DNA from: Pseudomonadota bacterium
GTDB taxonomy: Bacteria > Bdellovibrionota > Bdellovibrionia > Bdellovibrionales > SG-bin7
Length of the DNA: 15,032 nt
Reading direction: 5' to 3'
NCBI GenBank assembly: GCA_034439715.1
Contig: JAWXAY010000099.1
Coordinates: 1 to 15,032, forward strand
The notes under the pieces: model-generated
The model's input: only the letters and a program-made list of their open reading frames with translations
The model's database searches: none
Told to the model about the DNA's origin: nothing
Shown: piece by piece, positions 161-15,032 of the stretch
Position numbering within the stretch: the stretch's first letter is position 1
Layout of the letters: each line of letters opens with the position of its first letter
Made by a program: the position numbers and the translations under genes

Positions 161-799
161 TCAATTCTCGGCCCGTGTTTTTGCAGCTGATTTTTCGTCT
201 ATGACAGGACCCGTTTTAGATGCGGTCCTCAATGCACGACAAACAGTACCCATTGAACAATTTAATTGAACGGCGATTGCCCGATAGCTAAGACCCTGGC
301 GCCTGAGATTGACGACGGCATCAAAGTCATTTTCTTTTGGACGGCCTAACTTTTTACCAATTGAGACGGCATGATCTAGGCCAATGAGTGTGCGCTCTCG
401 AATGAGAGCTGCTTCAAACTCAGCAAAGCAGGCTAATAAATTTCTGAGTAAGCGACCTGCGCTGGTTGTAAGATCAAATTGATCTTTGACTGACACAAAT
501 TCAACACCCAACTCTTCAAACTCTTCGACAGTCAATACCAGGTGTTTTAGCGATCGGAAAAGACGATCAAGTTTAAGAACGACGACGACATCGACTTGCC
601 GCTCTCTAACAAGAGTCAATAGTCTTTTGAGTCCTGGCCGTTCAGCGTTTGTACCACTATATCCGTGATCGACAATCTCTTCTGCAATCGTCCACTCACG
701 AGCCTTGCAATAGGATCTTAACTCTGAAAGTTGAACTTCTGGTTTCTGATCTCGAGTGGTCGAACATCTTGCATAGACGGCAATACGTTTGGAGGTCAT
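161..799 (-). CDS. small serine recombinase (resolvase/invertase family) with C-terminal HTH
   Basis: IAVYARCST (catalytic Ser), GxSG...RPGL, KLDRLFRS, FAEFE..LIRERT..GL, GKKLGRP, then HTH GLSYRAIAVQLNCSMGTVCRAL. Confidence 0.95.
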   Translation of the reverse strand: MTSKRIAVYARCSTTRDQKPEVQLSELRSYCKAREWTIAEEIVDHGYSGTNAERPGLKRLLTLVRERQVDVVVVLKLDRLFRSLKHLVLTVEEFEELGVEFVSVKDQFDLTTSAGRLLRNLLACFAEFEAALIRERTLIGLDHAVSIGKKLGRPKENDFDAVVNLRRQGLSYRAIAVQLNCSMGTVCRALRTASKTGPVIDEKSAAKTRAEN

Positions 800-2495: not shown

Positions 2496-3287
2496 ATGCC
2501 AGAATTAGCTGAAGTTGCTCTCTACGCCAGAGACTTAAACGAAATTTCCCGTGACCAAAAAATTCTCAAGGTCACTTTTCCTAATCAGAATGATTGGGGC
2601 TCAACAATTATACCCGCCGTAGCCAGAAAGAAATTTAAAAGCCTAACGAAAAAATCAATTCAGTTCCAATCCCATGGGAAGGCACTCCAGCTGCACGTAA
2701 AGGGCACAGCGAGCCCCTTGCTCGAGTTTAGATTAGGAATGACCGGACAGTTTCATTTATTAAAAAAATCTGAAGACTGGAGAAGGCATTACTTCTTGGC
2801 GCTGCATTTTGAACAGAACACTATTTATTATGCCGATCCTCGTCGCTTCGGACGAGTCATTGATCCTATTTCTCGTGATCATGCACTAGGTGGTTTTGCG
2901 CCAGGCGATGGCTTTTGGATAAGCGATAAAGTTGCTGTTCCCGGTGGCTTTAAAACGCTACCTAGAATCACGTGGCTTCTCTCGACGGGGGACCAAACAG
3001 GTGTCGGCAATTATATGGCAAACGAAGCCCTCGGCGCTTTAAAGCTTTCACCCTTTTTGCCTTGTTCTACCGTTACCGAAGCAAAAGCCATCTTAAAAAA
3101 ATGCCGAGACATCGCCCGAAAAAGCTTTAAGTATGGCGGCAACTCTTTTGGATCAGGGTACTACTTGTTAAATGGTGAAGAGGGAAAATACTCAAAATTT
3201 TGCCGCTTCTATCAAAACCAACAGGTTACTAGACATGTCTTTAGAGGTCGGCCGGTCTTTTCCCACTTCGCCGGGCCAAATTTATAA
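2496..3287 (+). CDS. Fpg/Nei-family DNA glycosylase/AP lyase, zinc-less finger (NEIL1-like)
   Basis: N-terminal MPELAEV (catalytic Pro2/Glu3), HGK, FRLGMTG, DPRRFG, H2TH motif GVGNYMANEAL; no CxxC zinc finger, C-terminal RGR instead. Confidence 0.9.
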   Translation: MPELAEVALYARDLNEISRDQKILKVTFPNQNDWGSTIIPAVARKKFKSLTKKSIQFQSHGKALQLHVKGTASPLLEFRLGMTGQFHLLKKSEDWRRHYFLALHFEQNTIYYADPRRFGRVIDPISRDHALGGFAPGDGFWISDKVAVPGGFKTLPRITWLLSTGDQTGVGNYMANEALGALKLSPFLPCSTVTEAKAILKKCRDIARKSFKYGGNSFGSGYYLLNGEEGKYSKFCRFYQNQQVTRHVFRGRPVFSHFAGPNL

Positions 3288-3766
3288 CCCTCTACTCATC
3301 TATCTAAAATTATTTTTTATATCAAAAAATACGAAAATAGTGGGCGCAGCTCAAGTTTAGAAGTGCTTAAAAGCCAAGCAATCACAGCAACTTAAATAAC
3401 GCCATAAAGGAGCTAGTTTTCAATCCGAAAACTCTGCTATGCCTTTACTGACAGGCATTCTAGAGGATCGGCATCTTGACAAAATGGTGCGCAATAGCAT
3501 ACTCTAGAAAGAATACAGGGATTCGTGTGTCTACCTTTCACTTTGTCGAAGCGTTTCTGAGAAATGTTTTGGCTCGAAAGAAAAGGCGCAGTGACAGTCC
3601 CTCCAATCAAATCCTGCTGGTCAGGTGAAGAGGTACAATATGAACAGCTCATCATAAAAATCCCATCAATATAAAATTCAAAGTTTAAAACTAATAACAC
3701 GGTCAGTGCATCGCTTTGACTTAAATTCAATTCGACATTTTGACCCGATCAATTGCGGAGATATTT

Positions 3767-4855
3767 ATGGCTCTACAGAGCACTGCTACGCCTTTTTTAA
3801 AGAATAACGCCCTCGAAACTCAAATTAAATTCAATATGGACTTGGGAAAAGAAATCACCTGGCGCCTGGTGAGTGTGGATTTACCTGACATTGGATTAAA
3901 TCACCTCAATAACCGTTTTGCGCCTGATGAAGCTATGACTGAAGAGGAACACGAACAAGCAATTATTGAAGAGGATGCAATTGCCTTTGAAAATTTAGAA
4001 AAAAGTTGGACCAATAATCCACAGTTTGAACAGCTTATCGGCTTTACCGATGACAAATCTTCGATGGTAAATTTAATCGCTGGTCATAGAAGATTCTTTG
4101 CTGCCAAGAGAACAAAATCAAAATCGGCTCTCATTTGGGTGGCTCACGGCCTTACCGCCGACGAAGTTGAACATGTCAGAGATTGGCCAGAAATTCATCA
4201 GACCAAAGTTCCTCACGCATCGTTTGCGAGATACAAAGCAATTTACAATGACCTCAAGGGTAGAAACGAACTGGATCGTGAAAAGCGTGTAAATGTATGG
4301 AAACAGAAGGGCTATACAAAACCGCAGATTCTAAAAGCTGAACGAGTTTTTGGCCGTATGGATTCATTTTGCAAATCAGTTGGTGAGAAGACTCAAAAAC
4401 GGTCAGGGCAAGTAAAGGCATTTGAAACGTATGACCAAATTTGTGAAACCAAATTCCAAGAGCTAAAGGATCAAGGTGAGATTGCCCGAATTGTTACGCT
4501 TGATAAAGTCGCGAAAGCTTTCTTAAAAAATCAAATTGCACATGACGATTTGAAGGTTACCATTGAGGGTTTGGCAGAGCTATCTCCTTCGGATCCAGTG
4601 TATAAGTCCATTAAGGATAACCCCGATTATCTGAATGATGTTCAAAATCTTAGACGTCTAACAAATCTAGCAAGAGCCCAACGCAATGCTGACAATATTG
4701 TAACTGAGGTTCAAGAGTTTACGGGCCGCATTTTTTCTAAACTAGTTGATCGTGCTGATGTTGCAGAAATGACGGCTTGTTTAGTTGAACTTAAAGACAC
4801 CGCAACTCGTATTGAGGCCGCTCTGAGTAATATCAACAGTCGAGGTTCAAAATGA
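3767..4855 (+). CDS. ParB/Srx-like N-terminal domain protein
   Basis: LIAGHRRFFAAK (GxRR motif, 4082-4093), N-terminal NNRF, helical C-terminus; ATG 3767 has a GGAG RBS and is preferred to TTG 3740. Confidence 0.75.
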   Translation: MALQSTATPFLKNNALETQIKFNMDLGKEITWRLVSVDLPDIGLNHLNNRFAPDEAMTEEEHEQAIIEEDAIAFENLEKSWTNNPQFEQLIGFTDDKSSMVNLIAGHRRFFAAKRTKSKSALIWVAHGLTADEVEHVRDWPEIHQTKVPHASFARYKAIYNDLKGRNELDREKRVNVWKQKGYTKPQILKAERVFGRMDSFCKSVGEKTQKRSGQVKAFETYDQICETKFQELKDQGEIARIVTLDKVAKAFLKNQIAHDDLKVTIEGLAELSPSDPVYKSIKDNPDYLNDVQNLRRLTNLARAQRNADNIVTEVQEFTGRIFSKLVDRADVAEMTACLVELKDTATRIEAALSNINSRGSK

Positions 4856-6369
4856 TTTGCCAAGTAAAAATTGTTGGTGGCTGTGGATTTATTTGTGATT
4901 GGACTGATGACTGTAATGAACTTTTTGATTTGGTGTTGCAGCCGTTGCCTCATCAGAAAGCCTCAAAAAAATATGAGACAACACAGCTCAGAGCTTTCAA
5001 CCTAGTAAACTTCTTCAAGGCTAACGGTGTTGAAGTTCAAGTTGATATCGAAAATCCCTCAGAACACGCTCGACTTACGATCTGGACTCAGAAACTTAAA
5101 ACAATGCGAAATGATGTTTCTGTGGCAGAAGTTGACGGCTTCATCAAAAATGTCGGTATTGACCTCCGAGAACTACAAACTCGAGGTCTTCACCGCCTTT
5201 TGCAGTCTCATTTCGCTTTGTTAGCGGCGGGGTGTGGTGCTGGAAAAACTCTTCTTAACCTCTGCACAGCGCAGTTTAAAAAACGGAAGACTGGCAAGGT
5301 TCAAGTATTTGTTATTGCACCGTCCGCTTGTGCTGGTGAATACATTAAGGAGCTGGAGCGCTTTAGAGGCTACTTTGACTTAACCATGGTGGACACCTGC
5401 GGACTTAGCTCAAAAGAAGCTAAAGCCATAATTCGTGATGGCGATTGCGATGTTGTCCTAGTAAGCGTGGATTCCATTTCTCAGCTGGGTGACACCATCG
5501 CAGCGAGGCTACAGGAGTTTGATGGAGAAACTTTACTAATTGTTGAAGAGGGACACTCCGTAAAAAACGTGGCTTCAAAAAGATCCCAAGGAGTCCAGGC
5601 AATCGCTCCGCTTTTTGATCAGGTGATTGTGTCCACCGCAACACCACTTCCCCTGGGAGCGAAAGATTTGCGTGGCTACATTGGCTTAGTGGGGCTTCCT
5701 CAGCCTGAGGAGGCGTACACTAGTGGAATTCCAACTCAAGACTATGCACTCCTTAAAGGAGTCGCCTTTGTTACTGACGAAGATGACGTACCCTACGCCG
5801 CACTTGATACCGAAAATATCGAGTTTACTGATTTGCAGGACCTCAATAGTCAGATTTCTGAATCTGTAAAATTAGAGTTGAGCGCAGGTCATAAAGTTGT
5901 AATTTTCACCTCTACGAATAGAGCCCTGCAATCGGCCTATGAGCTTTTTCAAGGGATTCCAAGAACGGTTTTGAGCGGATCCTTTTTTATCGCAGACTGC
6001 AACGGTGAGCAACTCGGGCACGGCCGACGCAAAGAGCTTCAGAAAAAAGCAATTGATCAGTTCAACCACAATCCTGATTGTAAAGTTCTAATTGCAAACT
6101 ACCGAGTTGGTTCAACGGGCTTAAACTTGCAGTACAGCGGCGCTCGTATGGCAATATTCTATGAGGTCACAAACTCTGGGGCTGATTTCTTTCAATCTAA
6201 ATATAGAATCCGCCGACCGAATGTATTTCCTGAAGGTGGCTTCAGGTATGTATATGCTGTTCCAACCGATCCAAATCTTCGGCGAACCGTAAACCGCCAA
6301 TTTCTAAAACTGGCTGACCAACGAGCTACTCTGCGAGATTTAAAACTCCAATCAGGTAGTGGATTATGA
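4852..6369 (+). CDS. compact SNF2-like superfamily 2 helicase/ATPase
   Basis: Walker A GCGAGKT, Ia VIAPSA, motif II IVEEGHSVKN, III STATP, IV KVVIFT, V GSTGLNLQ, VI QSKYRIRR; ATGA overlap with the upstream gene. Confidence 0.88.
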   Translation: MICQVKIVGGCGFICDWTDDCNELFDLVLQPLPHQKASKKYETTQLRAFNLVNFFKANGVEVQVDIENPSEHARLTIWTQKLKTMRNDVSVAEVDGFIKNVGIDLRELQTRGLHRLLQSHFALLAAGCGAGKTLLNLCTAQFKKRKTGKVQVFVIAPSACAGEYIKELERFRGYFDLTMVDTCGLSSKEAKAIIRDGDCDVVLVSVDSISQLGDTIAARLQEFDGETLLIVEEGHSVKNVASKRSQGVQAIAPLFDQVIVSTATPLPLGAKDLRGYIGLVGLPQPEEAYTSGIPTQDYALLKGVAFVTDEDDVPYAALDTENIEFTDLQDLNSQISESVKLELSAGHKVVIFTSTNRALQSAYELFQGIPRTVLSGSFFIADCNGEQLGHGRRKELQKKAIDQFNHNPDCKVLIANYRVGSTGLNLQYSGARMAIFYEVTNSGADFFQSKYRIRRPNVFPEGGFRYVYAVPTDPNLRRTVNRQFLKLADQRATLRDLKLQSGSGL

Positions 6370-6731
6370 GTCGAATCAATCAAGGAGCCGCCGCTGAGGA
6401 AATAGCGGTAGCTCATGAAAGACTAAGGCTAGGGTCTGAAAATGCTGGGAGACTCAAGTATGTCGGCAATAGACATGGAATGGGCTTTGACATTCAAAGC
6501 TGCAATTCATCTGCAGATTCTTCGGCCAGATTTATCGAAGTCAAATCTTCAAGCGAAAACGGATACGTATTCTTAACAGAGCGGGAACGGGCTAATCTAA
6601 GTGCCCTGGGGGCATCAGCATGGCTTTATATAGTTGATGTCCACCTTCGCAAAGTTATTAAGACTATCCAAAATCCAATTAGTCTCATCGAAATCGATGG
6701 GACCGCCCTTACTTACAAAATTAAAATTTAG
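6366..6731 (+). CDS. DUF3883 (NO VEIN C-terminal-like) PD-(D/E)xK nuclease domain protein
   Basis: GAAAEEIAVAHE..RL, GMGFDIQS, RFIEVKSS, FLTERE, AWLYIV; ATGA overlap. Confidence 0.85.
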   Translation: MSRINQGAAAEEIAVAHERLRLGSENAGRLKYVGNRHGMGFDIQSCNSSADSSARFIEVKSSSENGYVFLTERERANLSALGASAWLYIVDVHLRKVIKTIQNPISLIEIDGTALTYKIKI

Positions 6732-6740
6732 GAGTTCAAA

Positions 6741-7967
6741 ATGAAATCAGTAAAAGCGACTTGCCCCGAATGTTCTCATCAGTTCCCTCTCGATGAAATC
6801 TTAACTAAAGAGATTGATTCGATGGTTAGCAAGGAAACCAAAGAAATTGTCGAGAAGAGAGATGCTGAAATCCGTTCAATGAAATCTCAATTCGTGGAAA
6901 TGGAAAGCCAAAATAAAATTAAGGCTCAGCAACTTGCCCACGAGGAAGTAAAGAAAGCCCTTAAGGCTCAAGAACAGCAAATCAAAGCTGAAAATAAAAT
7001 GATACTGATAGCCCTTGATGAAGAAATAAAAGATGCAAAAACACGGCTGCAGGAAGCGCAAAAAAATGAGCTGTCTCTTAGAAAGAAAGCCTTGGAGGTT
7101 GAACAAAGGGAAAAAGAGATCGATTTAGAGATCGCACGTAAAACTTCAGAGCAAGTGACGGTTGTTAGAGAAAAACTGACCAAGCAAATTGCTGAAGATT
7201 TTCACAGAAAAGATACGGAGCGGGAACATTTGATTTCAGAGTTACGAAAACAATTGGTGGAGATGAAGCAAAAGGCGGAGCAAGGCTCTCAGCAAATTCA
7301 CGGTGAACTTTTTGAGGATGAAATAGGCGCACTACTACGCGAGGCCTTCCCCACTGACACAATCGAAGATGTTCCAAAAGGTGTTTGCGGAGGGGATCTA
7401 ATCCAAGCAGTAGTAACCCGTTCAGGACAGCGGGCCGGAAGAATTCTTTGGGAGGTTAAGCAAACAAAATCATTCCAAACCGCCTGGCTTGAGAAACTGC
7501 GCGATGACCGCAATGAGCTTGGAGCAGAGCTGGCAATTTTAGTAACTGCGACTATGCCGAAAGGAAAAGTCGGAGCTTATCTGGACCAAGGTATATGGGT
7601 AGTTGATCCGATCGTCGCCATCAGTGTGGCCCAAGTGGCTCGCCAAAGTCTGATCGATGTTCATCAAGCAGTTGTAGTTTCAAGCGCTCGGCATGAGAAA
7701 GCCGACATTCTGTACAACTACCTAACCAATCCCGTCTTTCGTCAACGGCTCGAAGCAGTTGTTGAGAGTTTTCACCAAATGAGAGAAGATTTGGAGAGAG
7801 AAAAAAGAGCAATTTCAAAAAGTTGGAAACAGCGAGAGCGACAGATTGATTCAGTTGTTGAGAACACCGTGCATATCTATTCTGACATCCAGTCAGTGGT
7901 TGGCCATAAAGTTCTTACTATTCAGCGCCTTGAACTTCCAACTAGTGAGGTAACCCAGCATGAGTGA
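6741..7967 (+). CDS. DUF2130-family protein (CxxC, coiled coil, PD-(D/E)xK-like C-terminal domain)
   Basis: CPEC at the N-terminus, long coiled coil, QGSQQIHGELFE, FPTDTIEDVPKG..GGDLIQ, ILWEVKQTK, WLEKLRDD, AILVT; AGGAG RBS. Confidence 0.88.
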   Translation: MKSVKATCPECSHQFPLDEILTKEIDSMVSKETKEIVEKRDAEIRSMKSQFVEMESQNKIKAQQLAHEEVKKALKAQEQQIKAENKMILIALDEEIKDAKTRLQEAQKNELSLRKKALEVEQREKEIDLEIARKTSEQVTVVREKLTKQIAEDFHRKDTEREHLISELRKQLVEMKQKAEQGSQQIHGELFEDEIGALLREAFPTDTIEDVPKGVCGGDLIQAVVTRSGQRAGRILWEVKQTKSFQTAWLEKLRDDRNELGAELAILVTATMPKGKVGAYLDQGIWVVDPIVAISVAQVARQSLIDVHQAVVVSSARHEKADILYNYLTNPVFRQRLEAVVESFHQMREDLEREKRAISKSWKQRERQIDSVVENTVHIYSDIQSVVGHKVLTIQRLELPTSEVTQHE

Positions 7968-9552
7968 ACTTCAAATGAAAGTACCACCCTCGGATCTATA
8001 TCTATCGATCCGAGGTATTCAATACGCTTTTCACGAGGCCCTGGCTGACTTAGTCGATAACTGTATCGATGCTAATGCGGCTCGAATTTGGATCAAAGCT
8101 GATAAAGGTGAAATTATTATTGCAGATGATGGCGATGGAATGGGCCGTGACGATCTCGAAACAGCTATTACTCCGTGGCGAGCTGGAAGTACAAAGGCCC
8201 ATCTTCGCAAAGGAAAACGCGGCAAATTTGGAATCGGGATGAAGTCGGCTTCGTTCTCATTAGGTGACTGTCTAGAGGTTCATACTAAGGCTGATGGCTC
8301 CAAATTTGAATACATTGAATTAGACAAAGATAAAGTCGCAAAAATTAAAGACCCTGATCATAAATTTAAAACTGAGAACACCACGACTGAATTGTTTAAA
8401 TCATTTTGCAAAGATGGCCATGGAACTGTCTTGAAAATTACTAGAGTAAATAAAAGAAAAGTAATTGATCAAGCTTTGGAATCCTTAAAAAATTTATTGG
8501 GCTTGGTGTACTATCAACTTATTGAAAATGGAGAGTTAAAAATAATTATCAATAATTCGGATGTTAAGCCGTTAGACCCTCTAATGCGTGGATTAAAGAA
8601 AAACTCACCGAAAAATAAATATGAACTCTTTGAAAAGAAAACGATCACTGTCGAACATGATGGAAAAAAAGCAATATTTAAAGTCCAGGGAGCCTATGTA
8701 GGTAGAGGAGCTTTTTGGGCCGACGATGATAAAAAAAGTTTTAAGTATTTTTTAAAGAGAAATCCCGACGAAACTGAAGCGGCGACTAGAGGCCTACTTA
8801 AATTAGATGAGCAAGGAATTTATACTTTAAGAAATGGGCGATTGATTACATTAGGCGGCTGGTTAGGGTTGGCCTCCAAAAACACATTATTACACCACAA
8901 CGGCTCGACAAGGGTGCTTCTCGAGTTTGATGAAGCCGGTGATGACTTCATGGGCCTTGATACGAATAAAACTCAACTAAAGGTCGAAGAACTTCTTAAA
9001 GAAAAGGTCGGTGCTTACATAAGAGAAATTGTAGGTAGAGGCGAAGACGCCTATCGCGCTGAAGGCGATATTATCAAACGTGCTAATATGCGAAAGTCAT
9101 CGTCAGGAAATGTGAAAAATTTGAATCTTAGCAAGGACTCTGCAATTGCTCAGTACAATTTGGAGCAAAGACGAAAGAAAGCTATCCCAGAGTACGATGA
9201 CAAGCAAAAAAACATTGCTGCCGAAGACAGGTCGGAAGCTCAAAAGTCAGAAGAACTCGTCATCTTGAAAGAAAAGATGGCTTATGGAAATCTTTGGGGA
9301 TTTGAGAAAAATAAAAATGGTGAAGTGATTTTATTTATTAATGAGCAGCACCCTGGTTATGCTGCTTTATTCCTTGAAGACGATGATGATAAATTCAGAA
9401 AAAATCTTATTCATCTTTTCTATACTCTAGCCCTACACGAAGCTTCAATAAATGAACTTCACTCAGAACTCAAACCGGCTGTTTTAAAAGAGCTGGAAGA
9501 TGCCTTTGGAACTTTCAGGCGTTGGGTTTCTAAGCACTATACTGAGTTTTAA
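7960..9552 (+). CDS. MORC-type GHKL ATPase (HATPase_c_3-like)
   Basis: EALADLVDNCIDA (N box), DDGDGM (G1), GKFGIGMKSASFSLG (G2), HGTVLKI, QGIYTLRNGRLI (S5-like domain); 8-nt overlap with the DUF2130 gene. Confidence 0.9.
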   Translation: MSELQMKVPPSDLYLSIRGIQYAFHEALADLVDNCIDANAARIWIKADKGEIIIADDGDGMGRDDLETAITPWRAGSTKAHLRKGKRGKFGIGMKSASFSLGDCLEVHTKADGSKFEYIELDKDKVAKIKDPDHKFKTENTTTELFKSFCKDGHGTVLKITRVNKRKVIDQALESLKNLLGLVYYQLIENGELKIIINNSDVKPLDPLMRGLKKNSPKNKYELFEKKTITVEHDGKKAIFKVQGAYVGRGAFWADDDKKSFKYFLKRNPDETEAATRGLLKLDEQGIYTLRNGRLITLGGWLGLASKNTLLHHNGSTRVLLEFDEAGDDFMGLDTNKTQLKVEELLKEKVGAYIREIVGRGEDAYRAEGDIIKRANMRKSSSGNVKNLNLSKDSAIAQYNLEQRRKKAIPEYDDKQKNIAAEDRSEAQKSEELVILKEKMAYGNLWGFEKNKNGEVILFINEQHPGYAALFLEDDDDKFRKNLIHLFYTLALHEASINELHSELKPAVLKELEDAFGTFRRWVSKHYTEF

Positions 9553-10751
9553 ACTGAGCGAGATTTTCGGTGAAAGAGAACTACCTCTTTGCATCGAAGC
9601 TGTCTTGATTCAACCCGATTGAACCATCTACGGTTAGGCACTTCTCTCCAAAGTCGTCCATCGTGGCTACTGCGATCAATATTGCGGATTTCTTCAAATC
9701 CGGCTTCGTTCATCGCAGCTAGATATAATGGAAGCTGATTCTTAAGATCGCTAAAAGCTAGTACTTGAACAAACACACCGTTTTTTTGCATCACTTGATT
9801 AATATTTTCAAAAACTAACATCATATTTGAAATATAAATTTCGAGACTTGCGGAGCTCTCTCTAGAAGACATCGTATAGAATGGTTCATTCTCTATTTGA
9901 TCGCTTTCGATAATCCAATATGGCAAGCGAGTTTCTGAGCGGCCGTTTACTTGCCACTTATGATAAAGAATATGTCTTTCAGGGTATGGCGGTGAGGTCA
10001 GCACTAAGCTAAATTGTCGATCATTTTGGTTCCAAATATCGACAATGCCAGGATCAGTTGCATTCGCTATATGTATGCCTGAAGTGGGAATGAAATCTAT
10101 CGACCCATGCTCTAACTCGAGGTGAAGTTTTATTGATTGCTCGATATTGATATTTAGAATCTGCCTGAATACCCGATGAGCATGTGCTGAGTCAGTAACT
10201 GAAAGCCTTTGTTCGATTTCCAATTGACCGAGGCGCAACAATGCCCCTTTTGCAAAGTTCTGAGTGCGTCTTGAGGGAAGCTGCCGAATCGCCGCGAATA
10301 TCTTTCGCGTGGAAGTTTCAACCACCTTAGGGACATTTTTAAAGTAAAATTCATCACCTGTTCGAAATTCAGCCTCCACATTACGGCCACTTAGATTTTT
10401 AGACCAATTATCTAATGCTCTAATGTCGGCTTTTGTGAGGAGCAAGGTTTTAAGCTTCGAGGAAAAAATCGCAAGGTCGTTTATATCGGTGCCGACAAAG
10501 TTTCGTCTAGCGACCATTGCTTCGACGGCACTGGTACCACCTCCAACAAAGGGATCCATTATCCAATCATCAGGCTTTGAAAAACTATTTATAACTGATC
10601 GAGGAAAGCTTGGTGGAAAACAGGCCGGGTACTTATAAAGAATATGAGTCCAATCAGCAATCTTTTGATTGTGTGACATACTCTCTTTTATAGAAGAAAG
10701 AGCTTCCTTAGTGGATTGGTGATGATTGGTGTTGAGTAATCTTTCCAGCAT
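9549..10751 (-). CDS. DNA amino-methyltransferase, probably N4-cytosine (motif I before motif IV)
   Basis: THILYKYPACF, DPFVGGGT (motif I), GTDIN, LVLTSPPY (motif IV; SPPY is typical of m4C enzymes). Alternative start at ATG 10679. Confidence 0.9.
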   Translation of the reverse strand: MLERLLNTNHHQSTKEALSSIKESMSHNQKIADWTHILYKYPACFPPSFPRSVINSFSKPDDWIMDPFVGGGTSAVEAMVARRNFVGTDINDLAIFSSKLKTLLLTKADIRALDNWSKNLSGRNVEAEFRTGDEFYFKNVPKVVETSTRKIFAAIRQLPSRRTQNFAKGALLRLGQLEIEQRLSVTDSAHAHRVFRQILNINIEQSIKLHLELEHGSIDFIPTSGIHIANATDPGIVDIWNQNDRQFSLVLTSPPYPERHILYHKWQVNGRSETRLPYWIIESDQIENEPFYTMSSRESSASLEIYISNMMLVFENINQVMQKNGVFVQVLAFSDLKNQLPLYLAAMNEAGFEEIRNIDRSSHDGRLWREVPNRRWFNRVESRQLRCKEVVLFHRKSRSV

Positions 10752-10784
10752 TATAAAATTCTAACGTCTTTGGCAGCCTCTGCG

Positions 10785-10806
10785 TAGGCCAGGAATCCCT
10801 GGTCTA
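10785..10806. terminator. stem-loop between the RHH gene and the methyltransferase
   Basis: TAGGCCAGG-AATC-CCTGGTCTA, 3 nt after the RHH stop; no clear U tract. Confidence 0.3.
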
Positions 10807-10809
10807 GGT

Positions 10810-11022
10810 CTATGCCTTTCCGCCCTTTCTTGTTTTCGATAAATCTTCCATAAAACTTTTCATTAATTCCTCCATCACCCGCGAAGCCGGAGCGGATCCA
10901 CATACTTTTTTAAATCGTTCATAAAGTGATCGCGACAGGTACAGCGACACTTTTTCCCGATCTTCTTCGAGCGATAGTTTATCAAGGATCTTATTAGCGT
11001 TGATCCTAGCTTCGATAGTCAT
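10810..11022 (-). CDS. ribbon-helix-helix (CopG/Arc-like) DNA-binding protein
   Basis: 70 aa; beta strand KVSLYL, helix SRSLYERFKKVC, turn, helix ASRVMEELMKSFM. Confidence 0.75.
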   Translation of the reverse strand: MTIEARINANKILDKLSLEEDREKVSLYLSRSLYERFKKVCGSAPASRVMEELMKSFMEDLSKTRKGGKA

Positions 11023-11054
11023 ATACCGTAAGTATACCCCTTAATGCGGTATAT
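11021..11054 (-). promoter_or_regulatory. putative RHH operator and -10 element
   Basis: Perfect inverted repeat ATATACCG (11021-11028) / CGGTATAT (11047-11054), with a third TATACC at 11033-11038; minus-strand TATACT (11031-11036) lies 8 nt before the ATG. Confidence 0.55.
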
Positions 11055-11103
11055 TAATCAAACCAAAATATCGAGAGATGTCCCTTACGTTAAAGTTCTG
11101 GAC

Positions 11104-11271
11104 TTAGGTTTTGTTACGACCCCCGTTTTTGCTGCTGAATAAGTTTACAACTTTTGCCATAGCCTCTTCTGGCGATGTGAATTTTAGAGAGTTCGTAACT
11201 CCCTCGACTTCCACACCCGCTAAGCGAAGGTAAATTTGCATTGTTTTTGAGCAGGCTGAGTCAATGGCCAT
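11104..11271 (-). CDS. possible 55-aa protein
   Basis: MAIDSACSKTMQIYLRLAGVEVEGVTNSLKFTSPEEAMAKVVNLFSSKNGGRNKT fills the TET-RHH gap in the operon's orientation; no clear RBS. Confidence 0.3.
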   Translation of the reverse strand: MAIDSACSKTMQIYLRLAGVEVEGVTNSLKFTSPEEAMAKVVNLFSSKNGGRNKT

Positions 11272-11329
11272 CAGAGCCAAAATGATTTGCCGAAATATAC
11301 TTTGGTTTGATCAAGACATATCAGCACTA

Positions 11330-12124
11330 TCAAAGGCCAAGATTAATTTTGTTTGCCATCTTGCGAAGTTCTTCTTCGTAGGACTTACCTATGATTTCTT
11401 TTTTGACGTAGCAAACAATTGTAAGTCTGGTGCCATCGCCATTGATCTGAGTATTGCCATGCCAGATTTCTCTACCATTGAATCCAAAGTAGTCTCTTGG
11501 CCTCATGTTTATGGCTACTCTGTATTCAGGTAACACGAGGTATCCGCCAGAGAATGAATTGTCCCCCAGGCAAATCATGTTGCTATAGGTACCTTCTGCA
11601 TTGCTTCTGTCTCGGTGCAGGCACGTTCGAAATGATTTATTCAAAATGCACTGGCTGAAAACCGTTCTTCCAACTAAAAAGTGAGGATCAATATCCAACT
11701 TCTCCTGAAAATAATAAATGGCTGCGAACTCACGTTTGTAAATTGAATCAATCATTTCAATTATCCGAGTCATCTTCTTGTATTTAGCGTGCTCGGATCT
11801 CGTGAACTTAGTTTCAGCGACACACCCATAGGATCGCAAATTCAGATCATATCCAATGACTCTTGATTCTTCATAAGTTTGAAGACCGGCCGCATCGGAC
11901 CTTAAACTTGCGGTGCGAACACAAATATCCGAAAGTCGATGATATTCATTATTTACTTCTGCTGGCACAATTGTTTTTCTGAATTTAAATAGTAGCCGTC
12001 CCTGAGGGTCGTATGCATCTACGTCCGATTCAATCAGTAAATCAAAGTCGTAAAAACCTGGGGCGGTACCTTTCAGCTGTTCGCAGTTTTCTACAAATTT
12101 GGTCAACGTAATTTTATTGACCAT
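11330..12124 (-). CDS. TET/JBP-family 2-oxoglutarate/Fe(II) dioxygenase (5-methylpyrimidine oxygenase-like)
   Basis: VFSQCILNKSFRTCLHRD (HxD at 11609-11617), GGYLVLPEYRVAINMRP, WHGNT (distal His), R-LTIVC-Y (Rx5-aromatic, cf. TET RISLVFY). ATG 12124 overlaps the upstream gene by 11 nt; the track gives TTG 12145. Confidence 0.85.
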   Translation of the reverse strand: MVNKITLTKFVENCEQLKGTAPGFYDFDLLIESDVDAYDPQGRLLFKFRKTIVPAEVNNEYHRLSDICVRTASLRSDAAGLQTYEESRVIGYDLNLRSYGCVAETKFTRSEHAKYKKMTRIIEMIDSIYKREFAAIYYFQEKLDIDPHFLVGRTVFSQCILNKSFRTCLHRDRSNAEGTYSNMICLGDNSFSGGYLVLPEYRVAINMRPRDYFGFNGREIWHGNTQINGDGTRLTIVCYVKKEIIGKSYEEELRKMANKINLGL

Positions 12125-13010
12125 TTTGATTCGCAACTTGATCAATAAAAGTTATGGTCGTTTCATTTTGGCTTCGTAGGTCGTTGAGAATTGCAGCCAA
12201 CCTTTTGAGAAAGGCTAAGTTGATAGCTTCAACCCCATCGTTAGCGGCTTCAACCATCCGTGCATAGGCCATACATTTTTGTTGGAGGTGCTTTAAGGTC
12301 ATGATGACTAAGGCCCGCTTGTGTTCTGGAATCTCTGACTCAGCAGAGGAACAAGTTGAACTGTCCGGCGTATTCTGTGGAAGGAGTAAGTTAAGCATAT
12401 GATTATAATCTACAGGTGCGTCGGCATGACCTAAGTCACTTTTTTGTAGGCCTTTGCCAATATCGTGAAATGGTCCGTCGTCATTTGATTGCGATTGTGG
12501 CGGGATAACTCTTACGACGTGGGGCTTTCCATTTCTGATGCAGTTTATTTCTCGTATCCCCGAAATTTTCGGGGATGCTGATCGAAGGTATTTTCTAACG
12601 TTTGCTACTGTTCTATCGGTGGTGCCGGCGATGGTGGCTATCACTTGGTCAGACCAGCTATCGTCAATGCGCAAGATGCGCTCGATAACTTTTCTTTTAT
12701 CTTTGCCAGTCAATGGATGCCCATGCGTTGAATTTTTCTTCACACCCTCGACATAGCGATCAAGCTCAGTTTCTTTGGCAGAAATCTCGATATTTATGGT
12801 CCCTGCATTTGCTTTTAAAGCTGCATGATAGGTGTGAAATCCATTTAAGATGACATATTTTTTTGTAACTGGGTCTTCAAAGACACTAATTGCTGGAAGT
12901 GAAATATTGTTGCTTACCAAATCTGCATAGTGTTCGACTAACTCACTATTGATTTCTTCTCTGGTGAAAAATTCTGTGCTGTCACTGATCTGTTCTAATC
13001 TTACGTTCAT
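12114..13010 (-). CDS. ParB-like N-terminal domain protein with HTH
   Basis: VEHYAD, LPAISVF, ILNGFHTYHAA (ParB GxHR-like), NSTHG..LT..DKRKVI, HTH WSDQVIATIAGTTDRTVANVR; GGAG RBS before GTG 13013/ATG 13010. Confidence 0.8.
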   Translation of the reverse strand: MNVRLEQISDSTEFFTREEINSELVEHYADLVSNNISLPAISVFEDPVTKKYVILNGFHTYHAALKANAGTINIEISAKETELDRYVEGVKKNSTHGHPLTGKDKRKVIERILRIDDSWSDQVIATIAGTTDRTVANVRKYLRSASPKISGIREINCIRNGKPHVVRVIPPQSQSNDDGPFHDIGKGLQKSDLGHADAPVDYNHMLNLLLPQNTPDSSTCSSAESEIPEHKRALVIMTLKHLQQKCMAYARMVEAANDGVEAINLAFLKRLAAILNDLRSQNETTITFIDQVANQNGQ

Positions 13011-13131
13011 CACTTTAGGCTCCAATAGTCCAAGAGGTTTTTACCCGCCGCACAGTGGACTGATCCATGTGGTGAGCGAGACGGATTAAACCAAACTGGG
13101 AGTGCAGGAGATGGGTGTAGAGCTGGGGTAG

Positions 13132-13149
13132 AATAAAAATATTTTTATT
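13132..13149. repeat. 18-bp perfect AT-only palindrome
   Basis: AATAAAAATATTTTTATT, overlapping the stop codon of the rep-like gene. Confidence 0.6.
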
Positions 13150-13956
13150 TCTCCGACGTTGATTTATTTATCTGGGATCTTTTGTGAATTGGAGAGATCT
13201 CCTTCCAGTTTTCTTTAAGCTGATAGAAGTTTTTCTTGGGCTTTCCACTGGCATTTAGTATCGAGGTCTTGATCAAAATCCCGTCGTCTTCATTGCTCAG
13301 ACGTTTCAGCATTTCAGAGGTAGGACGCTCATCAGCAGGCACGGTAGATGGATCGTAGCTACCACGCCTATCAAGCCAGTCGATGAGGTGAGAGTAGGCA
13401 GGTCCTTTTACTCCTCTTACACGATATTCCTTGAATTTATTGCGAAGAGTGTTTGTGTCTAGGCGTTTGCAGGTGTGATCAGAAAGTACTGGAACAATTG
13501 TTTTAAATATTGCTGAAGCAACAATATGCAAGTCTTCCAGTAGAATTTTGCTCCTCAATACGACTGTTTCTGGACTGTTGTTTGAGTATGCAGATGGATG
13601 TAGATCTTTTGTGCGGAACCCTCTGAAAGAAACTTCAAATCTGATTCTACATCCTTTATCATATAGTTTAAGTCGTATCTTCTCGTTGCGATATTGCTTA
13701 ACAGGATGATCAATCTCCCAGGTCTGTTCAAATTTACTCCTGACAGTCTTCCTCTCATTTATTTGTCGAAGATCATGGGCTTCCCTAGTAGCTATTCCAA
13801 AGAATTTTGAAATGGTCGTGGCATAGCTTTGAAATAGTTCCTCTCTAAACAGAGGACTTGGAAATTCAACGTAGAATTCGATGTATCCAAAGTGGATAGG
13901 CTGTCTGAATAGATAGGAGTCTGGAAATGTATTCTTTGCAAAAGCATAAAGACTTA
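13145..13956 (-). pseudogene. 5'-truncated putative replication initiator/relaxase (Rep_trans-like) with C-terminal winged-helix-like region
   Basis: Stop-free frame from 13954 to the stop at 13145 (269 codons), continuous with track ORF 13145..13558; IHFGYIEFYVEF and IRLKLYDKGCRIRFEV (KLYDKG..RFEV at 13631-13669); cut at the IS3 left end. Confidence 0.6.
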
Positions 13957-14935
13957 TGATCTTACCCCGATTTTACGGACAGAGGATTTTGTGGTAAACA
14001 CACAAAAGACAAGGGGTCTATATGAAACAAAGGCACACAAAAGAGTTTAAAATTCAAGCGCTGGAGCTTGTTAACCAGCTAGGATCGTACGCTGAAGCTG
14101 GGCGACAGCTGGGCATTAGAGATAGCGCACTTCACACTTGGAAGAAAAAGTTAAAATTTGAAATGAAAAAAGATTCTGAAAAGAATTCAAATTCGAATTT
14201 AGAATCTGAAGAAATCAAGCGGCTAAAAAAAGAAGTCGAAGAACTCAAAAAAGTGAATTATATTTTAAAGCGAGCCGCTGCTTTTTTTTCACAAGACCAT
14301 CTGAAATAAAGTATCAGATGGTCGAAGAATTGGCTTTTGAGAAACAAGATATTAGCAGGTGTTGTTTGGTTTTAAAAATGAGTCGCAGTGGTTATTATGA
14401 TTGGCGTAGCCGACCAGTGTCGGCGCGAATATTAGCCAATGAAAAACTCACTCAGAAAATAAAGCAGATCTGGACACAAAGTCGTGGGATTTATGGGCTA
14501 CCTCGAATTTGTAAAAAACTTAAAACCGAAAATGTCATTGCTGGCAAAAATAGGGTTCAAAAAATTATGAAGATTAATAAAATCCAGGGCGTTGGAAAAA
14601 AGAAATTCAAAGTTATGACAACCGATTCAAATCACGATTTGCCAATAGCAAGTCGGGTTTTCAAGGCTGAAAATCATGGGCAGCAAGTTACACGCCCAAA
14701 TCAGTTTTGGGGTGGTGACATTACGTATATTCCGACGGAAGAAGGCTGGCTTTATCTGTCGATATTTTTAGATTTATGTACCCGAAAAGCTGTCGGGCAC
14801 GCGATGTCGGACTCAATGACTAGCGAACTCGTGATAGAATCGTTGGACATGGCCCTAAAGCGCCAGGACATTGTCACAGGAGACGATCTCATGGCGCACA
14901 GTGATCGTGGAAGCCAATACGCTGCAGAAGATTAT
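13957..14935 (+). mobile_element. IS3-family insertion sequence, 3'-truncated
   Basis: Left end TGATCTTACCCCGATTTTACGGACA closely resembles the IS3 IRL (TGATCTTACCC...GGACA); orfA/orfB arrangement; no right IR seen. Confidence 0.92.
14022..14309 (+). CDS. IS3-family transposase OrfA
   Basis: HTKEFKIQAL...AEAGRQLGI..SALHTWKK HTH, leucine zipper EIKRLKKEVEELK, ILKRAAAFF. Confidence 0.93.
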   Translation: MKQRHTKEFKIQALELVNQLGSYAEAGRQLGIRDSALHTWKKKLKFEMKKDSEKNSNSNLESEEIKRLKKEVEELKKVNYILKRAAAFFSQDHLK

Positions 14936-14965
14936 GTGGTGTTCACGCAATTTCTTCCGCTTTAA
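14318..14965 (+). pseudogene. IS3-family transposase OrfB, truncated before the catalytic Glu
   Basis: SRSGYYDW, IYGLPRI, WGGDITY (D1), GWLYL, HSDRGSQY (D2); homology ends near 14935 and the DNA..ESF (E) region is missing. Confidence 0.9.
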
Positions 14966-15032
14966 ATTGGCGCGGTTGATTGCCTCTGGTTATTGTAATT
15001 AGCGAGAAGTCCTGCATCGTTTTTAATATTTC
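14935..15032 (-). mobile_element. possible end of a second element inserted into IS3
   Basis: TGTGGTGTTCACGCAA begins where OrfB homology stops; a minus-strand frame (..NIKNDAGLLANYNNQRQSTAPI*) ends at 14962, just inside this end. Confidence 0.3.

Follow-up and report, generated by a model that had tools for sequence, protein, structure and literature searches.

Prokaryotic MORC proteins are encoded in operons with superfamily II helicases (SWI2/SNF2 among them), nucleases, and methylases, which Iyer, Abhiman and Aravind (2008) read as laterally spreading restriction-modification (R-M) systems in which the GHKL ATPase loops DNA (PMC2292703). In the Hma system (HmaA-HmaB-HmaC; Payne et al. 2021 as cited by Liu et al. 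2024), the HmaA NOV_C nickase is required against T4 (PMC11232893). TmtA of the Tiamat system joins a GHKL ATPase to a C-terminal NOV_C domain and acts as both an ATPase and a single-stranded DNase; some copies neighbor helicases, methyltransferases (MTases), and nucleases (bioRxiv 10.64898/2026.09.30.754977). Here, we analyzed a 10.5-kb stretch of bacterial DNA in which genes of these families lie beside genes for a TET/JBP dioxygenase, two ParB-fold proteins designated ParBa and ParBb, and an Fpg/Nei-family glycosylase. The window, by which we mean the entire DNA analyzed, is the whole 15,032-base contig C99 of genome G000 (3.26 Mb, 111 contigs, 95.7% complete); named homologs of its proteins come from Oligoflexia, Bdellovibrionaceae, and Bacteriovorax.

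The remaining genes of this stretch also have described counterparts. O'Toole et al. reported a subclass of phage TET/JBP enzymes in which conversion of thymine to 5-hydroxymethyluracil (5hmU) depends on co-expression of a ParB-like partner (bioRxiv 10.1101/2025.08.14.668559; PNAS 2026, PMC13229309). The partner of these 5mYOX enzymes is described as a nucleotide-binding domain (NBD) followed by a short helical segment, a disordered linker of ~50 residues, and a C-terminal domain (CTD), with no classical DNA-binding domain and with MxParB and CcParB as the closest structures (PMC13229309). In both reports, a missing cytosine-5 (C5) methylase is taken to argue for a thymine substrate (bioRxiv 10.1101/2025.08.14.668559; PMC13229309). 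ParB-fold proteins act in the Dnd, Dpd, and GmrSD systems as well (PMC12839542). Finally, the defense glycosylases Brig1 (PMC11078745), Dag1/2 and Brig2 (bioRxiv 10.1101/2025.10.29.685425), and Brig3-BapA (bioRxiv 10.64898/2026.02.25.707755) have uracil-DNA glycosylase (UDG) or helix-hairpin-helix folds and work alone or with one helper. The Dag/Brig2 preprint reports a search of integrons for helix-two-turn-helix (H2TH) enzymes that returned only UDG-like ones, and weak protection by overexpressed housekeeping Fpg (bioRxiv 10.1101/2025.10.29.685425).

Comparison of the window with its relatives indicates that the 10.5-kb stretch, part of a decayed mobile element in an uncultured Bdellovibrio-like bacterium, is probably composed of two independently mobile modules, accompanied by an accessory glycosylase gene that recurs elsewhere, and that the two modules probably adjoin by accident. 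Module A (3740-11022) consists of genes for a ribbon-helix-helix (RHH)-like protein, an SPPY MTase, ParBa, an SNF2 helicase, a NOV_C protein, a DUF2130 protein, and a MORC-type ATPase. Module B (11330-13025) consists of ParBb and the Tet_JBP enzyme. We do not regard these parts as one pathway because each readable comparator shows separate inheritance of the TET/ParBb pair, module A, and the Fpg-like gene, and because an N4/N6 writer is of a chemical class that would not supply TET with a substrate. The C5 MTase family PF00145 was found neither in the window nor in G000, with a control that was positive in 9 of 14 genomes. A chain leading from methyl writer through TET to glycosylase, proposed as a single system in the initial annotation of this DNA, is unsupported because the genome lacks a C5 MTase, and the proposal fails as well on the class of the writer and on the separate inheritance of the parts. 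The caveat attached to that proposal, a chance assembly of cargo, proved right for the TET part. The genes and remnants of the window are listed below with their coordinates; values that follow domain names are E values.

161-799, minus strand: serine resolvase/invertase (Pfam Resolvase 5.5e-43, plus helix-turn-helix); left mobile flank
2496-3287, plus strand: predicted zincless Fpg/Nei-family glycosylase/apurinic-apyrimidinic (AP) lyase (Fapy_DNA_glyco 7.6e-17), from a sparse subfamily
3740-4855, plus strand: ParBa, encoded by the signature gene of module A; ParB-CTPase fold, GHRR motif, long helical C-terminal half
4852-6369, plus strand: SNF2/SF2 helicase (SNF2-rel_dom, Helicase_C, DEAD, ResIII) with Walker A CGxGKT and a DExH-like box
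6366-6731, plus strand: stand-alone NOV_C (DUF3883) PD-(D/E)xK nuclease (NOV_C 3.4e-9), translationally coupled to SNF2
6741-7967, plus strand: DUF2130 protein (DUF2130 1.9e-59); optional member of module A
7960-9552, plus strand: MORC-type GHKL ATPase (HATPase_c_3 2.8e-23)
9549-10751, minus strand: N4/N6-class MTase (N6_N4_Mtase 5.8e-17), motif I preceding TSPPYP; presumed self-marker of module A
10810-11022, minus strand: small RHH-like open reading frame (ORF) directly upstream of the MTase; by its position, a possible controller protein
11104-11280, minus strand: tyrosine integrase C-terminal remnant (58-codon ORF); seam between modules A and B
11330-12145, minus strand: TET/JBP (5mYOX) Fe(II)/2-oxoglutarate dioxygenase (Tet_JBP 3.2e-17); predicted thymine-to-5hmU hydroxylase
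12114-13025, minus strand: ParBb, ParB-CTPase-fold partner of the dioxygenase
13145-13972, minus strand: 5'-truncated homolog of a 398-amino-acid (aa) gene of locus L003; probably a pseudogene
14022-14965, plus strand: IS3-family transposase OrfA/OrfB (HTH_Tnp_1, HTH_21, rve); multi-copy, terminates the contig

All nine genes of the initial annotation are present as ORFs at the coordinates given here, and the intact MTase, TET/JBP, glycosylase, SNF2, MORC, and nuclease genes that it had claimed were all found by ORF and Pfam analysis. On the plus strand, the Fpg/Nei gene is separated by a 450-base gap from a tightly packed ParBa-SNF2-NOV_C-DUF2130-GHKL run with operon-like overlaps of 4 nt at 4852, 4 nt at 6366, and 8 nt at 7960. 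The order on the minus strand is ParBb, TET, two small ORFs, and MTase; ParBb and TET overlap by 32 nt, TET and MTase share a strand and lie ~580 bases apart, and the 3' end of the MTase gene overlaps that of the GHKL gene.

Module A and its comparators

Module A recurs in two genomes. In G320 (contig C11, locus L094), genes for the RHH-like protein, MTase, ParBa, SNF2, NOV_C, DUF2130, and GHKL proteins lie on one strand with a serine recombinase alongside; identities to the window proteins are 42-44% for the MTase (by tblastn and by alignment), 34% for ParBa, 44% for SNF2, 43% for NOV_C, 35% for DUF2130, and 39% for GHKL. The G654 copy (contig C9, locus L097) is without DUF2130, and its identities are 65% for the MTase, 34% for ParBa, 43% for SNF2, 38% for NOV_C, and 42% for GHKL. 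Relative to both, the RHH-MTase pair of the window is inverted and has its place at the opposite end of the operon, where the TET operon lies immediately upstream of it. Neither genome contains Tet_JBP or a member of the Fpg-like subfamily of the window; each has only a canonical Fpg, ~30% identical, on another contig. The distribution of the module is sporadic. Within Bdellovibrionota, ParBa found a match in 1 of 400 other genomes of the phylum sample and in 1 of 383 other genomes of the order, and two family-level searches seeking the B. stolpii locus returned G320 alone among 237 genomes and none of 75 in the other family.

Two side observations concern these loci. Positions 4730-18161 of L097 place the G654 copy of module A in a defense island with AbiEi/AbiEii, RES-Xre, Schlafen AlbA_2, an SNase-like nuclease, and a tyrosine integrase. 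At positions 15977-16540 of L094, a UDG-superfamily glycosylase gene lies ~700 bases past the RHH-MTase end of the G320 module, beyond a recombinase fragment; the gene may represent another glycosylase occupying a similar place, or may simply belong to the host.

The catalytic motifs of the module A proteins are conserved. The D...EVK motif of NOV_C, the Bergerat motifs ExxxDNxxDA and DDGxGM of the GHKL protein, and the TSPPYP and DPFVGGGT motifs of the MTase are each kept in 3 of 3 orthologs, the MTase motifs being invariant. The DUF2130 protein has an N-terminal CPEC zinc-ribbon-like motif, a coiled coil, and a C-terminal nuclease-like domain with D...ExK, and the presence of such motifs in both it and the NOV_C protein bears out the description of two PD-(D/E)xK-type proteins at this locus. 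The designation of the MTase as m4C-type was sound as to class (PF01555, SPPY, hence N4/N6); N4-methylcytosine as the product is predicted from the SPPY motif alone. The enzyme matches 48 PADLOC MTase families, and the best 25 of these comprise 24 MTase_II and one orphan MTase. No Pfam family matches the RHH-like ORF; a 91-aa ORF in the same position in G320 gives a weak RHH_1 match (0.0075), and the alignment of the two is poor (11 columns identical).

ParBa and ParBb are without Pfam matches, and AlphaFold2 models place both in the ParB fold, as had been suspected from their sequences. The mean predicted local distance difference test score is 79.2 for each (alignments of 13 and 15 sequences, respectively). 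In Foldseek searches of the PDB, the ParBa model matched M. xanthus ParB (MxParB) best (7bnk, 1.6e-5), then C. crescentus ParB (CcParB), Noc, and KorB, and the ParBb model matched CcParB best (7bm8, 8.1e-7), then MxParB, Noc, and KorB. Within the GHRR motif of ParBa, G115, R117, and R118 are invariant and H116 nearly so across 13 sequences; the B. stolpii homolog carries the UniRef name ParB/Srx N-terminal domain protein.

PADLOC-DB 2.0 recognized no complete system in the window, in agreement with the earlier impression that this is not a recognized named system. Single-protein matches were obtained to DrmD, ZorD, TmtA, MzaB, and MTase_II. Those of the SNF2 protein (DrmD, ZorD, HmaA) are weak. 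The NOV_C protein matches the C-terminal part of TmtA and PD-T4-1 and resembles a split HmaA, and the NCBIfam matches of the GHKL protein to MzaB (7.1e-24) and BbrUII/HgiDII (5.4e-16) fall far under the cut-offs. Searches of viral contigs with the DUF2130, MORC, and ParBa proteins revealed no relatives. Plasmid searches gave no match to the island DNA or to ParBa, and for SNF2 and the MTase only partial matches, with 0 records covering at least 80% of the query; the plasmid relatives of the MORC protein are only 22-33% identical and lie in dcm-vsr-HNH-helicase-EcoRII_N loci. In the literature on MORC R-M systems, defense glycosylases, and Hma, we found no description of the module A gene set, nor did we find work combining at least four of TET/JBP, ParB, SNF2, glycosylase, and MORC.

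The restriction-like reading is supported for the SNF2, MORC, nuclease, and MTase genes because their synteny is conserved; it does not extend, as the initial annotation had it, to TET, which is absent from G320 and G654. Recurrent co-occurrence, the check suggested for the whole cluster, was likewise seen for the module A genes in those two genomes and, in the comparators with readable DNA, was not seen for TET with either module A or the Fpg-like gene.

Module B and its mobile flanks

The Tet_JBP enzyme retains the HxD...H...R motif: H177, D179, and G230 are invariant, and H229 and R240 nearly so. Seven close homologs are 58-66% identical. Among the 61 genomes of the set comprising G000 and its relatives, Tet_JBP scored above the cut-off only in G000, and a scan of the genome contigs with the single TET protein as query found nothing. 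The ParBb model comprises an NBD (residues 1-101), helices at 107-149, and helices at 234-300. Low-confidence segments lie at 152-157, 176-207, and 215-228; the stretch 176-228 would fit a disordered linker of ~50 aa ahead of the helical CTD. The helices at 107-149 are possibly a residual helix-turn-helix, and HTH_23 occurs in some homologs. ParBb has 5352 homologs at E<=0.001. Of 30 sampled, 9 match ParB_N at the same threshold, and fusions to MT-A70 or N6_N4 methylases are seen in others. ParBb found no match among phage records. A predicted TET-ParBb complex, built from our own alignments, scored 0.02, which is informative neither way.

One close homolog of the TET has readable DNA. It lies on L003, an Oligoflexia contig from a metagenome-assembled genome (G427), in the order 398-aa ORF, P-loop protein, ParBb (37% identity), TET (58%), and PDDEXK_4 nuclease, so that ParBb is again directly upstream of TET. 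L003 also encodes Phage_rep_O, ParA, and a CI-like repressor, which points to a plasmid- or phage-like element. It contains no homologs of the other island genes, and G427 has neither a MORC match nor an Fpg-like match. The 214-aa P-loop protein (L003, 8320-8964), encoded after the 398-aa ORF and ahead of the ParB-TET pair, matches Ploopntkinase3 weakly (E 0.049). It could be a 5hmU kinase, in which case thymine modification by that element may go further; the window has no counterpart of this gene. A narrow ParBb profile run over 86 TET-bearing loci detected ParB-like neighbors only in L003, L010, and L011, and is too narrow to deny phage TETs ParB partners.

By analogy, module B is predicted to be a pair in which a TET/JBP thymine dioxygenase, dependent on ParB, forms 5hmU; pairs of this kind are known. 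We infer the activity because the published phage enzymes are analogous; the pairing, the fold, the motifs, and the absence of a C5 MTase are observed.

Module B is bounded on both sides by relics of mobile genes: an integrase remnant lies toward module A, and a truncated homolog of the L003 398-aa ORF lies upstream of ParBb. Over 48 aa, the remnant at 11104-11280 shares 46% identity with residues 314-361 of the Phage_integrase in the G654 island (1.6e-6 in the small L097 database, 8.9e-5 against the window). On the other side, 13951-13190 matches residues 141-394 of the 398-aa ORF at 57% identity (tblastn). The first ~140 codons are missing: the frame is open from ~13972, its first ATG/GTG/TTG is at 13558, and its end is close to the IS3 element. 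Together with the resolvase and the IS3 transposase, these relics confirm the decayed mobile flanks that had been claimed for the locus.

The junction between modules A and B is not an assembly artifact, because difference-free contigs from sequencing run X4, which may derive from the same population, bridge 10673-11887 and 11869-14540. The window arrangement is found in these contigs and in metagenome contig L010, both possibly from the population of the window itself. Run X7, from a microbial mat sampled in another year and study, contains only a ~98%-identical MTase (window 9480-10771) between unlike sequences; the MTase cassette therefore has other neighbors elsewhere. Window parts left uncovered in runs X5-X7 are not counted as absences.

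Farther out, an ORF at 1456-1899 weakly matches a serine recombinase (CcrB, E 5e-4), and short overlapping ORFs at 1983-2380 may be transposase C-terminal remnants. The last ~98 bases of the window (14935-15032) are 100% identical to the ends of G000 contigs C38, C100, C5, C94, and C40; the assembly breaks here because the IS3-family element is multi-copy. Repeats within the window include no convincing att sites or terminal repeats. The longest contig is 19,147 bases for records identical to the window ParBa and Fpg-like proteins and 16,636 bases for those identical to the TET; a longer assembly of the element exists.

The zincless Fpg/Nei glycosylase

The Fpg-like protein begins with MPELAEV (Pro2-Glu3) and has a weak H2TH match (0.0038); NCBIfam Fpg models match residues 1-242 at 1.5e-22, far under their cut-offs. 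Its C-terminus is without CxxC pairs and without the PF06827 zinc finger. NEIL1 and plant Fpg are also zincless, and the missing finger is the part of the earlier label NEIL1-like that holds; the protein sequence matches bacterial Fpg (1ee8, 7.8e-13) more closely than NEIL1 (~1e-3). The zincless subfamily accounts for 68 of 82 homologs, none with PF06827 (64 have PF01149 alone and 4 are short and without a Pfam domain), and the other 14 are canonical three-domain Fpg proteins of at most 35% identity. G000 contains a second Fpg gene (C88, 13302-13643; L134) with a 343-aa frame and a better score (Fapy_DNA_glyco 9.2e-27); this is presumably the housekeeping enzyme, the window gene being an extra copy.

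Close homologs (51-55% identity) occur in 3 of 400 other genomes of the phylum (G296, G133, and G403), at four loci, and none of these genomes has a MORC or Tet_JBP match. At L129 (G296, contig C100, 9671-16274, minus strand), a 51%-identical Fpg-like gene comes last after genes for a 692-aa N6_N4 MTase, an McrB-like protein (MTaX1+AAA_5), and McrC. At the other three loci, the gene precedes a 931-aa SNF2 helicase, stands beside an AlkZ-like glycosylase, or lies within a polysaccharide cluster. Records of ParBa-like and Fpg-like homologs agree in longest-contig size in four cases (10602, 12361, 15510, and 33253), which amount to 4 of the 11 ParBa-homolog contigs of at least 10 kb; the sizes for the seven TET homologs agree with none of the ParBa or Fpg-like ones. 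The B. stolpii genome has ParBa and no match to the Fpg-like subfamily. We read the Fpg-like gene as one that often, though not always, accompanies module A and other restriction-like operons. It is tempting to speculate that the subfamily represents the first H2TH-fold defense glycosylase, an effector within restriction-like operons in which TET plays no part, an idea that we hold tentatively and consider less likely than not. If the enzyme is such an effector, base-excision defense extends to a third glycosylase fold.

Competing explanations and comparison with known systems

The composite reading suggests the following working model. The SPPY MTase would mark host DNA, perhaps under the small RHH-like regulator. 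Three proteins, ParBa as an NTPase, the GHKL protein as a MORC-type clamp, and SNF2 as a translocase, would load on unmarked DNA and scan it, and two nucleases, the nickase-type NOV_C protein and the DUF2130 protein, would cut it. The zincless Fpg/Nei protein would contribute base excision and AP lyase activity, either attacking unusual or modified bases of the invader or mending collateral damage in the manner of Vsr at dcm-vsr loci. Module B would be the leftover of a plasmid- or phage-like element whose 5hmU marks may have shielded its DNA from restriction, brought next to module A by an insertion accident rather than by the evolution of a pathway.

Other explanations divide the genes differently. 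The parts all lie within 10.5 kb with their motifs intact, TET and MTase run in the same direction at short distance, and BapA-Brig3 provides a precedent in which the range of a defense glycosylase is broadened by a modifying enzyme (bioRxiv 10.64898/2026.02.25.707755); from these observations one could construct a single write-oxidize-excise system in which the MTase or TET marks DNA, the Fpg/Nei enzyme excises the oxidized base, and completion of the process falls to the SNF2, MORC, and nuclease proteins, with either foreign DNA or a reversible cycle on self DNA as the target. We give this very little credence, given the separate inheritance of the three parts in every readable comparator, the disagreement of the TET contig sizes with the others, the integrase remnant and truncated gene that flank module B, and a writer of the N4/N6 class in a genome without a C5 writer. 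Its mark-and-destroy form, in which ParB-guided TET hydroxylates thymines on unmarked incoming DNA, Fpg/Nei excises 5hmU and nicks, and the SNF2, MORC, NOV_C, and DUF2130 proteins degrade the product, would be a bacterial counterpart of TET plus base excision used as immunity; we consider it very unlikely, and less likely than the weaker form above in which TET plays no part. A recent recruitment, in which modules that arrived separately now cooperate, for instance with 5hmU as a second self-mark or shield and one minus-strand transcript shared with the MTase, is unlikely, and the least so of these explanations. It accords with the short gaps along the minus-strand series of ParBb, TET, integrase remnant, RHH-like ORF, and MTase, with an arrangement that is stable in at least the X4 contigs and L010, and with an MTase that has moved relative to G320 and G654 and has other flanks in X7. 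The same arrangement is seen in no comparator, however, X4 and L010 may be the population of the window, and promoter- and terminator-like sites are no commoner in the window than in shuffled sequences (15 promoter-like sites versus 21.1 +/- 4.5 expected).

Module A might also serve outside defense, in DNA repair and maintenance or in the upkeep of a mobile element, with ParB-like partition or silencing, repair by the helicase, nucleases, and glycosylase, and an orphan MTase. Such a role would fit the lack of a complete PADLOC system, the Fpg-like homologs found beside an AlkZ-like repair glycosylase and in a polysaccharide cluster, and the many roles of ParB-fold proteins (PMC12704722). We regard it as improbable. 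The module is sporadic in distribution, its G654 copy lies within a defense island, the set of MTase, helicase, nucleases, and GHKL protein is a published R-M-like pattern (PMC2292703), and NOV_C and GHKL partners are proven anti-phage proteins in Hma and Tiamat (PMC11232893; bioRxiv 10.64898/2026.09.30.754977).

Several points weigh against the composite reading that we favor. The comparators are few, two loci for module A and one for module B, and belong to a single phylum. Base composition, with a G+C of 0.420 in the island versus 0.423 in the genome, gives no hint that any part arrived recently or separately. In the window, a single transcript could cover TET, the RHH-like ORF, and the MTase. 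The class of the TET is assigned from pairing, fold, and motifs rather than from a place in the published clades, and Pfam detected no thymine-hypermodification genes (P-loop kinase, AADT, GATase) in the window; such genes are usual companions of ParB-dependent enzymes. Co-location of Fpg-like and ParBa genes is read from equal longest-contig sizes rather than from DNA. Nei/Fpg-type enzymes are reported to excise 5hmU; if this one does so too, an interplay between the glycosylase and module B would be possible in this strain. Finally, we infer the methylation type, 5hmU formation, the substrate of the glycosylase, and phage defense.

The analysis resolves an attractive but misleading cluster into units that can be tested separately. 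Its novelty is in module A and in the neighbors of the glycosylase subfamily, not in TET-based demethylation. Module A is a conserved operon of five to seven genes that joins, as separate genes, the domains of the proven anti-phage proteins HmaA and Tiamat and adds a ParB-fold NTPase, a feature shared with Dnd, Dpd, and GmrSD. Module B brings a predicted ParB-dependent thymine dioxygenase pair outside phages, onto the mobile DNA of predatory bacteria; the co-occurrence dataset of PMC13229309 may list similar bacterial contigs. The pair raises two questions: does 5hmU occur naturally as a mark on bacterial or plasmid DNA, and does a ParB clamp keep this mark on the encoding element?

As in mammalian TET-TDG/NEIL demethylation, TET-family and Fpg/Nei-family enzymes occur here in one organism. 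Unlike that pathway, there is no C5 MTase and no TDG, the TET is of the ParB-partnered, thymine-oxidizing kind, and TET and glycosylase are not co-inherited. The closer relation of module B is to the ParB-dependent 5mYOX enzymes, with which it shares a Tet_JBP domain with HxD...H...R, a ParB-fold gene directly ahead, and the absence of a C5 MTase; the predicted layout of ParBb (NBD, helical segment, linker of ~50 aa, CTD) and its best matches, MxParB and CcParB, likewise resemble those of 5mYOX-associated ParBs. Unlike the phage systems, the window pair is encoded by the decayed mobile element of a bacterial genome, without kinase, AADT, or GATase genes, and the window TET is only 23-33% identical to the TETs of cultured phages. 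With the defense glycosylases, the Fpg-like gene has in common a sporadic occurrence on mobile DNA near restriction-like genes, whereas its product has an Fpg/Nei (H2TH) fold and is encoded inside multi-gene operons.

Module A shares with Hma an SNF2 helicase, a NOV_C (DUF3883) nuclease, an MTase, and an ATPase. However, SNF2 and NOV_C are two overlapping genes in the window versus one 1183-aa HmaA, whose model matches only at E 0.008; the MTase is PF01555 versus DUF1156 in HmaB, and the ATPase is HATPase_c_3 versus DUF499 in HmaC. GHKL and NOV_C families are both present in module A and in Tiamat, the latter a giant single protein with TPR-like and metalloprotease-like folds between them, whereas module A has separate small genes with DUF2130 between and gives only partial TmtA matches. 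Because the HmaB and HmaC families and the single GHKL-NOV_C polypeptide of Tiamat were looked for and not found, module A is placed in neither system and is a variant of the MORC/SNF2 restriction-like operons. The R-M operons described in PMC2292703 have HNH or EcoRII-like nucleases and mostly C5 methylases with Vsr, a pattern that the distant plasmid relatives of the MORC protein fit. Module A differs from them in its NOV_C, DUF2130, and ParB-fold proteins, its SPPY MTase, and often an Fpg/Nei enzyme ("ParB" has 0 occurrences in the text of PMC2292703). Like them, it combines a HATPase_c_3 GHKL protein with an SNF2 helicase, nucleases, and a methylase in a conserved neighborhood.

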